Positions 25,797 to 58,592 of a DNA stretch of 64,000 nt are shown piece after piece. The stretch is taken from sequence record PZ154897.1, one strand, 5' to 3'. Both the position numbers and the translations under genes were made by a program. Under the pieces are notes generated by a model. It was given only the letters and a program-made list of their open reading frames with translations, ran no database searches and was not told the DNA's origin. Every line of letters starts with the position of its first letter. Position 1 is the first letter of the stretch. The stretch is from a phage.

Positions 25797-26087
25797 TTAT
25801 TTACGGAATGAAATGAAAGCAGCAACTGAAGCAACTAAACTGTCTTCAATATAAACTTCAATTTTTACCGGAGCTTCTGACTCAAATTTACCTGTTACTA
25901 CACCTTGGAAAATACTTTCAGTCTGTTCTGGCTTTGAAAAATTTTCAGAAGGAAAAATTCCAAACTTTTTATCTGTTCCGAAAATTTTGATAAATTCATC
26001 ATAAACTGCTTCATTAAAAGCATTATCAGCAGGAATAACGCCTTCAACTACAAGTTCTTGACCTAAAAAGCGTAAAGAAGATTTCAT
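25797..26087 (-). CDS. hypothetical protein (alt.-3 position)
   Basis: 96-aa ORF with GAGGAA RBS, downstream of early promoter. Confidence 0.55.
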   Translation of the reverse strand: MKSSLRFLGQELVVEGVIPADNAFNEAVYDEFIKIFGTDKKFGIFPSENFSKPEQTESIFQGVVTGKFESEAPVKIEVYIEDSLVASVAAFISFRK

Positions 26088-26118
26088 TTTGTGTTCCTCA
26101 TGTTATGTCAGTAAGACT

Positions 26119-26148
26119 ACTATAACACAACACGAGGGACTTGTAAAC
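26119..26148 (-). promoter_or_regulatory. early sigma70-type promoter (GTTTACA-N17-TATAGT)
   Basis: Minus-strand -35 at 26142-26148, -10 at 26119-26124; drives ORF starting 26087. Confidence 0.7.
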
Positions 26149-32929: not shown

Positions 32930-32966
32930 TTTTATTCTCCGAGATGTTTAATTGCGGTACAGGTAT

Positions 32967-32995
32967 ATAATATCATATCCTGTACCAAAGTAAAC
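32967..32995 (-). promoter_or_regulatory. early promoter (GTTTAC...TATTAT) with 8-bp inverted repeat spanning -10
   Basis: Minus-strand GTTTAC at 32990-32995; IR ggtacagg/cctgtacc at 32956-32986. Confidence 0.6.
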
Positions 32996-33330: not shown

Positions 33331-33357
33331 TTTATTCTCCTTTGTTTGTGTAAGATA

Positions 33358-33387
33358 ATACTATCACAAAGGAACTATACTGTAAAC
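33358..33387 (-). promoter_or_regulatory. early promoter (GTTTACA-N17-TAGTAT)
   Basis: Minus-strand consensus upstream of ORF starting 33330. Confidence 0.6.
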
Positions 33388-33416
33388 AACTTTGTGCAAT
33401 CTTTGGAAAATAAAAA

Positions 33417-33436
33417 AGGACTCCCGAAGGAGTCCT
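33417..33436 (-). terminator. intrinsic terminator
   Basis: AGGACTCC-CGAA-GGAGTCCT followed by U-run on minus strand. Confidence 0.75.
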
Positions 33437-33440
33437 TAAC

Positions 33441-36859: not shown

Positions 36860-36889
36860 TTCAATTTCCTCATTTGTTTTGGTAGAGCT

Positions 36890-36919
36890 ATAATATCACA
36901 ACTCTACCGTAAAGTAAAC
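36890..36919 (-). promoter_or_regulatory. early promoter (GTTTAC...TATTAT) with 7-bp inverted repeat spanning -10
   Basis: Minus-strand GTTTAC 36914-36919; IR ggtagag/ctctacc 36881-36908. Confidence 0.6.
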
Positions 36920-40176: not shown

Positions 40177-40204
40177 AAAGTCCTCATGTTATGTCAGTAA
40201 GTCT

Positions 40205-40234
40205 ACTATAACACAACACGAGGGACTTGTAAAC
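40205..40234 (-). promoter_or_regulatory. early promoter (GTTTACA-N17-TATAGT), near-identical copy of 26119-26148 cassette
   Basis: 53-bp identity with 26096-26148 except one base; includes leader and GAGGA RBS. Confidence 0.7.
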
Positions 40235-46896: not shown

Positions 46897-47158
46897 CATT
46901 ATGTTCAGATAAGGTCGTTAATCTTATCCCGGAATTATATCCAGCTGCATGTCGCCATGCAGTTCAGACTATATCTTCAACTTGTTAAAGCAAGTTGTCT
47001 ATCGTTTCGAGTCACTTGACCCTACTCCCTAAAGGGATAGTCGTTAGGCATTTATGTAGAACCAAAGTCCTACAATTTAGCACGGGATTGTCTACTAGAG
47101 AGGTTCCCCGTTTAGATAGATTACAAGTATAAGTCACCTTATACTCAGGCCTCAATTA
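46897..47158 (-). ncRNA. td group I self-splicing intron, ORF-less (262 nt)
   Basis: Starts UAAUUGAGGCCUGAGUAUAAGGUGAC after exon ...CUUGGGU, ends ...CUGAACAUAAUG; matches T4 td intron core by recall; no internal ORF. Confidence 0.85.
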
Positions 47159-47706
47159 ACCCAAGAAAACATCTACAGAACGTTGATACCACTGCAAATC
47201 CAAATAGCCATTACGCACATTAAACTGATAGAACATATGACAAGGCGGTAATGCCATATATTTAAGTTCAGCTGGATTCCACGCCGACACAATTTGACGC
47301 CTATCATTCGGCAGTTTTTTAATACGATCAATAACTTCTACAATTTGGTCTACACCGCCAAAATCACGCCACTGTTTTCCATAAATTGGACCAAGTTCAC
47401 CACTATGATATCCTAAATCTTTTGCTTGATTTTCGTAATTTTCATCCCAGACTGTTTTGCCTTGAATTAATGAATCATGCTGAATTAATCGTAAATCATT
47501 TACGTTAGTACTTCCTGACAAAAACCAAAGGAGCTCAGCAATACAAGCTTTCCAGGCGAGCTTCTTAGTCGTTACTGCAGGAAAACCTTTAGTTAAATCC
47601 CAGCGTAATTTAGTACCGAACAGAGCAATTGTTCCTGTGCCTGTTCGATCATCAGTTTCATAACCATTTTCCAGGATATCTTTAATTAAAAATTGGTATT
47701 GTTTCA

Positions 47707-48746: not shown

Positions 48747-48989
48747 TTAAACAGACTTTTTCACAATTTTCCAATCAGCTTTAAACTGTTCAACGTCAGA
48801 ATGATAAATCCAGAATCCTGCGCTTTCTCCATCCTCATAAAGAGGGCATCCATCGCATTCATCTTCCCATCCCATATCACGCAAAAGATGTTCAGCTTTT
48901 TCAACGAGTTCAGAATCTTTACCGATGATATTAAAATACCATTTACCTCTAACTTCTGAATCTTTGATGCTCTGGCGTTGTAATCTCAT
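48747..48989 (-). CDS. hypothetical protein (frd.2 position)
   Basis: 80-aa ORF downstream of early promoter. Confidence 0.45.
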   Translation of the reverse strand: MRLQRQSIKDSEVRGKWYFNIIGKDSELVEKAEHLLRDMGWEDECDGCPLYEDGESAGFWIYHSDVEQFKADWKIVKKSV

Positions 48990-49014
48990 TTTATTCTCCT
49001 TAGTTGATAGGGTA

Positions 49015-49044
49015 ATAGTATCACACTACTACCCTGTTGTAAAC
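49015..49044 (-). promoter_or_regulatory. early promoter (GTTTAC...TACTAT) with imperfect inverted repeat
   Basis: Minus-strand GTTTAC 49039-49044, -10 49015-49020. Confidence 0.55.
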
Positions 49045-49424
49045 TACTTTTTGAAAGTTTTTCGCAAAAGTTCAATGATTTCATCTACATTGTTTTCGTC
49101 TACAATGCAGTGAATTTTTGTTACGCCAGAAACCTTGTCTTCTATTTCATCTTCTTCAGAAGTCGGTTCTTTATACTCGCGGAAACAATGAAATTCGTCT
49201 TCGCAAATTTCTAAAAGTCTATCTTTGAGGTAAAAATGCTTTCCATTTGCGCATTCAATGTGTTTTACTGCTTTATATCCATTAGCGACGGAAACTTCTT
49301 TAACTTCAAACCATCCGCCATTATCTCGAATAGCTTTAACTATTGATGAATTAGAACGTGGGCTATAATTAATAAATGTATCAATAAGTCTTGGAACAAG
49401 TTCATATTTTCTACCAGTATACAT
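49044..49424 (-). CDS. hypothetical protein (frd.3 position)
   Basis: 126-aa ORF. Confidence 0.45.
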   Translation of the reverse strand: MYTGRKYELVPRLIDTFINYSPRSNSSIVKAIRDNGGWFEVKEVSVANGYKAVKHIECANGKHFYLKDRLLEICEDEFHCFREYKEPTSEEDEIEDKVSGVTKIHCIVDENNVDEIIELLRKTFKK

Positions 49425-53494: not shown

Positions 53495-53556
53495 ATGAAC
53501 CTCGTTCAATTAGTGAGATTTCTATTATATACCATCCGAATCTTAAAGTAAACAAG

Positions 53557-57476: not shown

Positions 57477-58592
57477 ATGGAAAAATTTATGGCAGAGTTT
57501 GGACAAGGATATGTCCAAACGCCATTTTTATCGGAAAGTAATTCAGTAAGATATAAAATAAGTATAGCGGGTTCTTGCCCGCTTTCTACTGCAGGACCAT
57601 ACGTTAAATTTCAAGATAATCCTGTTGGAAGTCAAACATTTAGCGCAGGTCTTCATTTAAGAGTTTTTGACCCTTCCACCGGAGCATTAGTTGATAGTAA
57701 GTCATATGCTTTTTCTACTTCAAATGATACTACATCAGCTGCTTTTGTTAGTTTCATGAATTCTTTGACGAATAACAGACTTGTTGCTATATTAACTAGC
57801 GGAAAGGTTAATTTTCCTCCTGAAGTAGTATCTTGGCTAAGAACCGCAGGAACGTCTGCTTTTCCATCTGATTCTATATTGTCAAGATTTGACGTATCAT
57901 ATGCTGCTTTTTACACTTCTTCTAAAAGAGCTATTGCATTAGAGCATGTTAAATTAAGTAATAGAAAAAGCACAGACGACTATCAAACTATTTTAGATGT
58001 TGTATTTGACAGTTTAGAAGATGTTGGAGCTACCGGCTTTCCAAGAAGAACATATGAAAGCACCGAGCAATTTATGTCAGCAGTCGGTGGAACTAATAAT
58101 GAAATTGCGCGATTGCCAACTTCAGCTGCTATAAGTAAACTCTCTGATTATAATTTAATTCCTGGTGATGTTCTTTATCTTAAAGCTCAGTTATATGCTG
58201 ATGCCGATTTACTTGCTCTTGGAACTACAAATATATCTATCCGTTTTTATAATGCATCGAATGGATATATTTCTTCAACACAAGCTGAGTTTACCGGGCA
58301 AGCTGGGTCTTGGGAATTAAAAGAAGATTATGTAGTTGTTCCAGAAAACGCTGTGGGATTTACGATATACGCACAAAGAACAGCACAAGCTGGTCAAGGT
58401 GGCATGAGAAATTTAAGCTTTTCTGAAGTGTCAAGAAATGGAGGTATTTCGAAACCCGCTGAATTTGGCGTCAATGGCATTCGTGTTAATTATATCTGTG
58501 AATCTGCTTCACCTCCGGATATAATGGTACTTCCTACACAAGCATCGTCTAAAACTGGTAAAGTGTTTGGGCAAGAATTTAGAGAAGTATAA
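57477..58592 (+). CDS. 35: long tail fibre hinge protein gp35
   Basis: 371-aa ORF; synteny. Confidence 0.9.
   Translation: MEKFMAEFGQGYVQTPFLSESNSVRYKISIAGSCPLSTAGPYVKFQDNPVGSQTFSAGLHLRVFDPSTGALVDSKSYAFSTSNDTTSAAFVSFMNSLTNNRLVAILTSGKVNFPPEVVSWLRTAGTSAFPSDSILSRFDVSYAAFYTSSKRAIALEHVKLSNRKSTDDYQTILDVVFDSLEDVGATGFPRRTYESTEQFMSAVGGTNNEIARLPTSAAISKLSDYNLIPGDVLYLKAQLYADADLLALGTTNISIRFYNASNGYISSTQAEFTGQAGSWELKEDYVVVPENAVGFTIYAQRTAQAGQGGMRNLSFSEVSRNGGISKPAEFGVNGIRVNYICESASPPDIMVLPTQASSKTGKVFGQEFREV

Follow-up and report, generated by a model that had tools for sequence, protein, structure and literature searches.

Early promoters of the window and their inverted repeats

The window, which is the whole stretch of 64,000 nucleotides of phage sequence record PZ154897.1 that was analysed here, belongs to a T4-like (Tequatrovirus) genome with 96-99% identity to many Tequatrovirus phages. 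It has a G+C content of 35-38% and corresponds to approximately 97-161 kb of T4 in an alignment with NC_000866. All coordinates are window coordinates unless another genome is named, and the elements studied, inverted repeats at the early promoters, are read on the minus strand, i.e. that of the early genes. A previous inspection of the sequence (the original prediction) had noted five such sites, and all five were found to be GTTTAC-N17/18-TAnnnT promoters directly 5' of a Shine-Dalgarno sequence (SD) and an ATG. The three main promoters precede gene 30.7 (P30.7), the gene at the cd.2 position (Pcd.2, named Pe133295 in T4) and the frd.1 orthologue (Pfrd.1). Judged by the sequence comparisons described below, the repeat that spans the -10 element of these promoters is real, general and selected.

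The window contains seven intergenic early promoters. Three of them, at 32995, 36919 and 49044, carry a hairpin around the -10 (class A), and in three others, at 33387, 26148 and 40234, the promoter spacer pairs with the SD (class B). The promoter at 53553 falls in neither class; it was not counted, as its repeat is only 5 bp in the window (AGATT/AATCT) and the 6-bp version in T4 is broken by a C.A mismatch.

Direct reading and an inverted-repeat search both located repeats around TATTAT at 32956-32986 and 36881-36908, exactly where they had been predicted. The third repeat, around TACTAT, is imperfect as stated, but the coordinates given for it, 49009-49035, were off by one (Table 1). The P30.7 repeat has 8 perfect base pairs and a loop of 15 nt, and the Pcd.2 repeat 7 perfect base pairs and a loop of 14 nt, while the 9-bp repeat of Pfrd.1 has a single mismatch that is a G.U pair on the sense strand. 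In each class A module the 5' arm fills the spacer between -35 and -10, the loop holds the TGn and the -10, and the 3' arm runs from just past the -10 to about +5.

When folded as sense RNA, P30.7 gave -16.6 kcal/mol (z = -5.0), Pcd.2 -16.3 kcal/mol (z = -4.6) and Pfrd.1 -16.1 kcal/mol (z = -3.0), and the same segments as single-stranded DNA gave -9.3, -5.0 and -6.8 kcal/mol, respectively. In the RNAfold structures the loops of the three hairpins shrink to 3-4 nt and the stems grow to 12-13 pairs by G.U and A-U pairs in the TGTGA/TAnTAT region. The Pcd.2 stem reaches 12 pairs via G.U pairs and closes on an AUAU loop, and its antisense strand folds with only -9.1 kcal/mol. The T4 orthologue of P30.7 lies at 129918, between genes 30.8 and 30.7. 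The only match of the window in Rfam was a group I intron, and the hairpins matched no curated family.

Enrichment of the repeats at early promoters

To set the three sites in context, every minus-strand GTTTAC-N17/18-TAnnnT site of the whole T4 genome was taken unselected (n = 41) and scored for its longest perfect Watson-Crick repeat with a loop of at most 20 nt and the -10 inside the loop. Repeats of at least 7 bp were found at 11 of the 41 sites, compared to 0.63 in shuffles that preserved both hexamers and the local composition (maximum 4 in 300 shuffles) and 1.1-1.2 from random positions. The excess was also seen for repeats of at least 8 bp (7/41 sites, 0.13-0.4 expected) and of at least 10 bp (4/41 sites with 10-14 bp, 0.01-0.05 expected). 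Control windows offset by 45-90 nt to either side of the T4 promoters gave 0-2 sites with at least 7 bp. In the Dhakavirus genome OP292222, 6 of 40 sites had at least 7 bp (0.72 expected) and 4 of 40 at least 8 bp (0.28 expected). Gaprivervirus has just 11 sites of the GTTTAC type and was used for comparison of orthologues only. In T4 and Dhakavirus the promoters thus exceeded the three kinds of control (shuffles, random positions, shifted windows) 10- to 100-fold. Paralogous promoters lower the number of independent cases, to about seven families in T4, and the excess is still large.

The longest T4 examples include AGTTGACAAGATTA-tggtatag-TAATCTTGTCAACT at 57990 and TCCTAGAATTGTGA-atatatta-TCACAATTCTAGGA at 65799, the latter before ipII. 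Valerie et al. (1986) reportedly remarked on stable stem-loops that could form 5' of ipIII, ipII, denV and orf61.9. These loci are T4 66498, 65799, 65413 and 62797, which are repeat cases in our T4 scan. Theirs was a local remark that is said to have come without genome-wide statistics, register, covariation or a link to the start of the promoter.

Chance palindromes in AT-rich DNA, which the original prediction had named as the outcome that would overturn it, have some initial appeal, as about 77 perfect 7-bp repeats with loops of 10-20 nt are expected per 64 kb of the window's composition by our estimate, and the weakest cases, which are AT-only 6-bp repeats, may indeed be chance. However, an enrichment of at least 10-fold at promoters, together with arms that are G+C-rich, fixed in register, conserved and co-varying, refutes this explanation for the class as a whole, and the probability that we leave to it is negligible.

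Two further searches were made in metagenomes. In a pattern scan of IMG/VR with GTTTAC-N12/13-TGTGATANNAT, most of the contigs were unrelated and had one chance match each, and the scan was kept out of the statistics. A metagenome scan with gp30.7 yielded nine loci and few new variants.

Register and covariation of the arms

The position of the repeats relative to the promoter was examined with 92 unselected promoters from three genera (T4, Dhakavirus and Gaprivervirus). Counted from the first base of the -10, the dyad axis falls into two clusters, +0.5 and -2.5 nt, both at the upstream edge of the element, and only these two registers exceeded all 200 column shuffles in Watson-Crick pairing. 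The repeats are therefore registered to the promoter, in agreement with the original prediction. Around ten different arm sequences occur in one register, and they all differ from each other (AGTTGACAAGATTA, TGATGAGGTA, GACAAGACTA, TGGGAGCA, GGTAGAG, GGGACCA, GAGGACA and others).

It had also been proposed to check whether the arms are conserved and co-vary at homologous promoters, and both were observed. At Pcd.2 the arms are GGTAGAG/CTCTACC in T4 and the window, and GGTAGGAC/GTCCTACC in Dhakavirus and four IMG/VR loci; one further locus (L013) has GGTGGAGTT/AACTCTACC with one G.U pair. The promoter PmotB has GGGACCA/TGGTCCC in T4 and GGGGTCA/TGACCCC in Gaprivervirus, and a paralogous promoter of this family at Dhakavirus 7371 has TGGGAGCA/TGCTCCCA. 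Similarly, the Pfrd.1 arms are GGGTAGTAG/CTATTACCC in the window, TAAGGCTAT/ATAGCCTTA in Dhakavirus and GTCTAT/ATAGAC in the Gaprivervirus orthologue. The P30.7 arms were unchanged in about 23 orthologous loci, in which the loop and the leader past the 3' arm diverge freely, and a natural 3'-arm variant, CTTGTACC (locus L009), results in a G.U pair on the sense strand.

A formal count was performed on 19 promoters of the main register; these were chosen for having stems, which inflates the percentage paired. In this set 74% of the cells were paired, compared to 58% in shuffles, and none of 500 shuffles reached the observed value. The covariation score was 0.56 compared to 0.28 in shuffles, 12 of the 13 pairs had changed on both sides, and slid registers gave 34-48% paired. 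Enrichment, fixed register and compensatory change together argue that the pairing as such is under selection, and from these sequence comparisons we consider this very probable.

The same data bear on the suggestion that the repeat is a palindromic operator for a dimeric DNA-binding protein, for example a repressor of early promoters. The dyad symmetry over the -10 and the GGTA...TACC common to three window sites would suit such a site, but the distance from GGTA to TACC varies among these three (31, 28 and 23 nt), the arm sequences are unrelated across the 92 promoters with no half-site consensus, the loops are 7-15 nt long, and orthologues change both arms together, so that complementarity is all that is kept. 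The sequence data thus contradict the protein-binding palindrome of the original prediction; lacking a common half-site, the three main hairpins are not operators, and for the repeats in general we regard an operator as very improbable.

A sister class in which the spacer pairs with the Shine-Dalgarno sequence

For the two promoters with -10 elements at 26119 and 40205, a TGTTAT...ATAACA symmetry had been predicted. It is present at both (26101-26106/26122-26127 and 40187-40192/40208-40213). However, it was under-read, as it is the mere core of a helix of 16-18 pairs, G.U pairs included, which links the promoter spacer to the SD. The helix before alt.-3 had -23.0 kcal/mol (z = -4.9) and that before alc -26.0 kcal/mol (z = -5.8). 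In predicted read-through RNA the SD of the T4 orthologue of the 26148 promoter (T4 123093) had an unpaired probability of 0.00, and for the T4 alc promoter (136336) the value was 0.00 in read-through RNA and 0.28 in promoter-proximal RNA; for the T4 orthologues of both promoters the promoter-proximal values were 0.2-0.3. The contrast was larger at the 33387 promoter (0.01 in read-through RNA and 0.86 in promoter-proximal RNA), which folds with -17.6 kcal/mol (z = -3.9).

Closure of the SD was not limited to the window. Unpaired probabilities of at most 0.05 in read-through RNA were obtained for 11 of 39 T4 promoters and 11 of 36 Dhakavirus promoters, with an expectation of about 4 sites and a maximum of 7-8 in 25 dinucleotide shuffles, and the same SDs were found open in promoter-proximal RNA. 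The class B helices co-vary as well (CUCCUGUAG/CUACAGGAG compared to CUCCAGUAG/CUACUGGAG and CUCCUCAUG/CAUGAGGAG).

The three main hairpins are different in this respect. Their 3' arms contain neither SD nor start codon, and in predicted folds of read-through RNA the SD stays open, with an unpaired probability of 0.69-0.80. At 12 of 13 class A promoters of T4 the SD was more accessible in read-through RNA than in a control with shuffled upstream sequence, the thirteenth having 0.53 compared to 0.54. Over all promoters the mean SD accessibility was not different from that in the shuffled-upstream control (Wilcoxon p = 0.84), and the signal was bimodal, with an excess of fully closed and an excess of open sites.

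Table 1. Positions of the promoter elements, pairing arms and terminator in the window.
Promoter or feature	Element	Sequence	Position	Strand	Remark
P30.7	-35	GTTTAC	32990-32995	minus	direct reading; before gene 30.7
P30.7	5' arm	GGTACAGG	32979-32986	minus	inside the -35/-10 spacer; 8 nt, 100% complementary (repeat search)
P30.7	-10	TATTAT	32967-32972	minus	in the loop of the repeat
P30.7	3' arm	CCTGTACC	32956-32963	minus	about -3 to +5; start probably inside the arm
Pcd.2	-35	GTTTAC	36914-36919	minus	cd.3/cd.2 position; T4 name Pe133295
Pcd.2	5' arm	GGTAGAG	36902-36908	minus	in the spacer; repeat search
Pcd.2	-10	TATTAT	36890-36895	minus	in the loop
Pcd.2	3' arm	CTCTACC	36881-36887	minus	about -4 to +3; repeat search
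Pfrd.1	-35	GTTTAC	49039-49044	minus	before the frd.1 orthologue
Pfrd.1	5' arm	GGGTAGTAG	49026-49034	minus	in the spacer
Pfrd.1	3' arm	CTATTACCC	49010-49018	minus	covers the last four bases of the -10 TACTAT (49015-49020)
alt.-3 promoter	5' arm	GUCCCUCGUGUUGUGUU	26124-26140	minus	spacer and start of the -10; -35 at 26143-26148, -10 at 26119-26124
alt.-3 promoter	3' arm	ACAUAACAUGAGGAAC	26093-26109	minus	contains SD GAGG (26097-26100); ATG at 26085-26087
alc promoter	5' arm	GUCCCUCGUGUUGUGUU	40210-40228	minus	-35 at 40229-40234, -10 at 40205-40210; arms as at 26148
alc promoter	3' arm	ACAUAACAUGAGGAAC	40178-40195	minus	contains SD GAGGA of the alc orthologue
30.8 promoter	spacer/SD pairing	UCCUUUGU/ACAAAGGA	33338-33373	minus	-35 at 33382-33387; spacer arm at 33366-33373 pairs with the SD-containing arm at 33338-33345
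Intrinsic terminator	stem-loop and tail	AAGGACTCC-TTCG-GGAGTCCTT-TTTTATTTT	33416-33437	minus	UUCG tetraloop; terminator scan

Two side observations concern the class B promoters. The segments 26093-26148 and 40178-40234 are two near-identical copies of about 55 nt of promoter plus leader, GTTTACAAGTCCCTCGTGTTGTGTTATAGTAG(T/A)CTTACTGACATAACATGAGGA, which lie 14 kb from each other and precede genes that are unrelated, namely the orthologues of alt.-3 and alc. T4 has this pair as well, at 123093 and 136336. Such copies are potential substrates for ectopic recombination. Furthermore, a CACAAAG at 33390-33396, 5' of the -35 of the 33387 promoter, belongs to a conserved 'tttCACAAAGTTGTTTAC' upstream motif and is complementary to the spacer sequence CTTTGTG (33365-33371), which itself pairs with the SD region, and there may be alternative pairings on read-through RNA.

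Pairing in read-through RNA or in DNA

T4 early promoters are transcribed by the host sigma-70 holoenzyme, which uses the -35, the TGn and the -10 in duplex form, and sigma-70 promoters start 7 nt past the -10. This position was assumed as the transcription start throughout. Since the start would then be within the 3' arm or right behind it, the hairpin can form only in read-through RNA from upstream, and hairpins in such RNA had been suggested in the original prediction; the promoter's own transcript lacks the 5' arm and contains at most 3-5 nt of the 3' arm.

The strands also differ in several counts. Among the stem mismatches, 13 were G.U on the sense strand, 3 were A.C and 3 were other, and the single-step natural variants in class A arms comprised six G.U, one A.C and one G.A. 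In the T4 promoter windows the sense RNA folded 3.0 kcal/mol better than the antisense, compared to 0.7 kcal/mol in random windows (p = 0.001), and the sense fold was the more stable one in 21 of 24 class A hairpins. Taken together, we think that the pairing probably acts in read-through RNA. For the reading as a whole, namely that T4-type sigma-70 early promoters contain selected hairpin modules which act on read-through RNA, we put the probability at about 0.55.

Several observations weigh against it. The sense/antisense asymmetry was not significant in Dhakavirus, and in class A much of it comes from consensus letters, TRTGn and TAnnAT, that happen to G.U-pair; since the class A asymmetry is confounded by the promoter consensus in this way, it is supportive only and does not count as independent evidence. 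A strand-biased C-to-T mutation could explain part of the G.U excess, and the covariation is equally expected of a DNA hairpin. The benefit of class A hairpins, insulation or stability, is a model that depends on accessibility computed in silico. Neither is the structure universal: the P30.7 orthologue of a Klebsiella phage retains ACCTGTACC, the letters of the 3' arm, with only 4 bp that pair, a Dhakavirus promoter of the ipII/ipIII type has no 3' arm, and one metagenome variant of Pcd.2 has a G.A mismatch.

The repeat might instead be a DNA-level promoter element, in which the dyad at the edge of the -10 forms a hairpin or cruciform, or alters melting or bending, and so tunes open-complex formation or early shut-off. 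Besides the covariation and the lack of strand asymmetry in Dhakavirus, this is favoured by the dyad axis, which lies in fixed register at -12/-11, where melting starts. At the early promoters of phage N4, the virion RNA polymerase recognises extruded DNA hairpins centred near -12, and Horwitz and Loeb (1988) reportedly described a synthetic promoter regulated by a cruciform. The likeness to these cases is one of position only, a dyad near -12 of a phage early promoter; T4 differs in using sigma-70 RNA polymerase on duplex DNA, the loops are long (7-15 nt), and the repeats are not known to extrude. Arms of 7-9 bp with such loops are poor cruciform formers, with single-stranded DNA folds of only -5 to -9 kcal/mol, and the left arm (-27 to -14) stays double-stranded in the open complex. 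Moreover, the repeat occurs in only about one quarter to one third of the early promoters, the G.U pairs on the sense strand outnumber the A.C mismatches, the fixed register is equally explained by packing a hairpin round the obligatory -10 with the shortest loop, and in the sister class this very spacer, again as 5' arm, has the SD as its partner, which is sensible only in RNA. We therefore consider a DNA-level element unlikely. The reviews of T4 transcription and post-transcriptional control that we examined do not mention repeats at early promoters; they list 'additional regions of consensus', promoter-specific behaviour, Alt stimulation and the shut-off of early promoters and early expression as unexplained, which leaves room for such an element.

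Proposed role of the hairpin modules

If the pairing acts on read-through RNA, an mRNA from the promoter itself would lack the 5' arm and most of the 3' arm and have an unstructured 5' end, while a read-through mRNA started upstream would contain both arms and form a hairpin of -14 to -20 kcal/mol. From this geometry, and with the assumed start, the module would mark read-through transcripts at the RNA level.

In class B the pairing of spacer and SD should, by analogy, silence translation on read-through RNA, and the downstream gene would then be translated only from its own early promoter. Besides alc, alt.-3 and 30.8, this class includes regB and denV. In class A the hairpin would close right after the -10 and leave the ribosome site open. 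Here the effect seen in silico may be an insulation of the translation start from AU-rich promoter sequence: an intercistronic RNA structure would lock this sequence away, so that it would neither mispair with the downstream translation start nor expose a single-stranded nuclease target. The hairpin may also protect RNA ends after cleavage, and a protection against RNase E, or against 3' exonucleases once cleavage has occurred, is equally plausible. Any such specific role for class A is tentative and modelled from the predicted folds.

A wider proposal, which we hold to be possible though doubtful, is that the spacer of early promoters doubles genome-wide as the 5' arm of an RNA switch, with the fate of a cistron set by the origin of its mRNA. 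If this were true, class B genes would be switched off in translation, and class A genes insulated or stabilised, on read-through RNA. It would be the early-gene counterpart of the hairpin rule for late genes, and would offer a post-transcriptional reason why many of the early proteins cease to be made at early-promoter shut-off despite continuing middle transcription from upstream.

Comparison with known systems

Hairpins that sequester the ribosome-binding site (RBS) and contain an internal promoter are known from T4, and they follow the same logic, as RNA started upstream folds the helix and RNA from the internal promoter lacks the 5' arm. The published cases, among them T4 genes e, soc, 49 and I-TevI, are described as 'all late genes', and their internal promoters are late ones (PMC2988022; PMC3014915). 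The class B promoters at 26148, 40234 and 33387 sequester the SD in their predicted folds just as these hairpins do, and by this analogy their function is well-founded. An internal start between the arms or in the 3' arm would also fit in geometry, if +1 is 7 nt past the -10 as assumed. However, the promoter inside the helix is here of the early sigma-70 type, and its own -35/-10 spacer serves as the 5' arm. The three main hairpins differ further in that they do not touch the SD; their nearest published analogue is the seg43(25) hairpin of Aeromonas phage 25, located just 5' of the RBS (PMC2988022).

The promoter modules themselves are the same as those of the PeSL cassettes, for which PST/T4 was included (Arbiol et al. 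2010, PMC2839356; Comeau et al. 2014, PMC4122927). Both have an AT-rich upstream region, a -35 and a -10 of a sigma-70-like early promoter, then SD and start codon, and both lie in variable regions at breakpoints of gene exchange. An identity of the -10-spanning repeat with the PeSL stem-loop was considered and rejected, as the latter is a terminator located 5' of both the -35 and the AT-rich region, whereas the repeat spans the -10 and has no U-tract. The published PeSL stem 'AGNA-loop-TCNT' fits instead the UUCG terminator of the window (Table 1), which immediately precedes the 33387 promoter, with its AT-rich region and -35, in a PeSL-type arrangement. The same terminator also precedes the P30.7 orthologue in a Klebsiella phage (locus L148, 120-140).

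The original prediction had suggested a coupling of terminator or processing site and promoter. As an alternative to the RNA-level module, the hairpin would then be the 3' end signal of the upstream unit fused to a promoter, or a site for RNase processing. With intrinsic terminators the three hairpins share a stable intergenic RNA structure with a G+C-rich stem and a short loop (about -16 kcal/mol, 3-4 nt), and stem-loops of the PeSL type from RB49 do terminate in a reporter assay. However, no U-tract follows any class A hairpin, the 3' arms being followed by GCAATTAAAC, AAAACAAATG and TATCAACTAA, and the terminator scan detected none of the three; the only canonical terminator that it flagged, 33437-33416, stands 5' of the 33387 promoter, so that a separate termination element is in use. 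Because no U-tract follows, the three main hairpins are not intrinsic terminators. With regard to processing, typical substrates of RNase III have longer stems than these. A hairpin left at a 3' end by processing could shield the upstream message, which overlaps with the role proposed above for class A. Overall, a fused end signal or processing site appears quite improbable.

Exchange of promoter modules

The promoter modules are associated with gene exchange between related phages: homology breaks at the P30.7 GTTTAC, and different genes lie downstream at Pcd.2 and at Pfrd.1. For about 150-200 phage records the similarity to the window starts exactly at the P30.7 GTTTAC (query 106-251) and the upstream gene differs. 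At Pcd.2 (36859 downstream) the homology between T4 and the window stops at the SD and different genes follow. These breaks are consistent with cassette exchange at promoter modules, as the PeSL concept predicts. At Pfrd.1, T4 (about 146015-146083, compared to window 48989-49010) has a small open reading frame starting with MFAPYIMA between the module and frd.1, which is absent from the RefSeq table examined; in the window this frame is lacking and the module is joined directly to the frd.1 SD, which places the insertion or deletion right at the edge of the promoter module.

The T4 record NC_000866 contains a misc_feature at 133300-133313 (window 36888-36901) with the remark 'inverted complement of previously reported sequence; corrects the early promoter Pe133295', and this is exactly the 14-nt loop between GGTAGAG and CTCTACC. 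The remark points either to an old sequencing artefact at the hairpin or to a loop that had in reality inverted between the short repeats; in the latter case the -10 would be shifted out of register.

It might be argued from such cases that the repeat is itself a recombination signal, or a by-product of cassette shuffling, i.e. a hotspot or a template-switch scar with no role in expression. The breaks of homology exactly at promoter modules, the shared Pcd.2 module of T4 and the window, the additional T4 frame at Pfrd.1, the near-identical modules at 26148 and 40234 and the loop once reported as inverted are all in line with it, and the PeSL papers document shuffling and cite T4 deletions at GGGC/GCCC inverted repeats. 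Homologous exchange, however, requires shared sequence and not dyad symmetry, and when paralogous promoters are compared, it is the arms that diverge most, which disfavours ectopic recombination. A scar should be lost with time, but compensatory change has maintained the arms in different genera; the breakpoints lie on the flanks of the module and not inside the hairpin, and the G.U bias is left unexplained. On balance such an origin is improbable.

Significance for early gene expression

The early promoters of T4 serve as a textbook system. On the evidence of the sequences, one quarter to one half of the T4 early promoters appear to be embedded in conserved, co-varying helices that can fold only on read-through RNA. 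This would provide a testable layer of control that separates promoter-proximal from read-through early mRNAs, and would extend to early genes a rule that has been described so far only for late genes. It would also give a finer anatomy for the mobile promoter cassettes by which gene shuffling is driven in T4-like phages. For annotation, hairpins that span the -10 should not be called terminators, and for engineering, a change in the spacer of a T4 promoter may alter the expression of the neighbouring genes.

Other observations

Palindromes internal to the spacer of other early promoters, often including the TG of an extended -10 (for example CATAAAGCTTTATG, CCACAAGGATGTGG, ACCACAAGGACCGTGGT and CACCATGGATGGTG), were observed at T4 146875, 55384, 2458, 50973 and 167086, in a further locus (L155, position 801) and in Gaprivervirus. 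In some phages such a palindrome replaces the -10-spanning hairpin at the Pcd.2 position.

Additionally, the sequence GTAGTT/AGTTG that flanks the -35 before TTAC is complementary to an AACTA(C)/CAACT box that is conserved 3' of many early promoters, as seen in the window (49039-49049 with 48999-49004) and at several T4 promoters. The putative outer helix would enclose the inner hairpin and may explain part of the conserved 'ATCAACTAC' box.

Finally, the group I intron of the window was located at 46945-47168 on the minus strand (Rfam RF00028, 76 bits) and is presumably the td intron.

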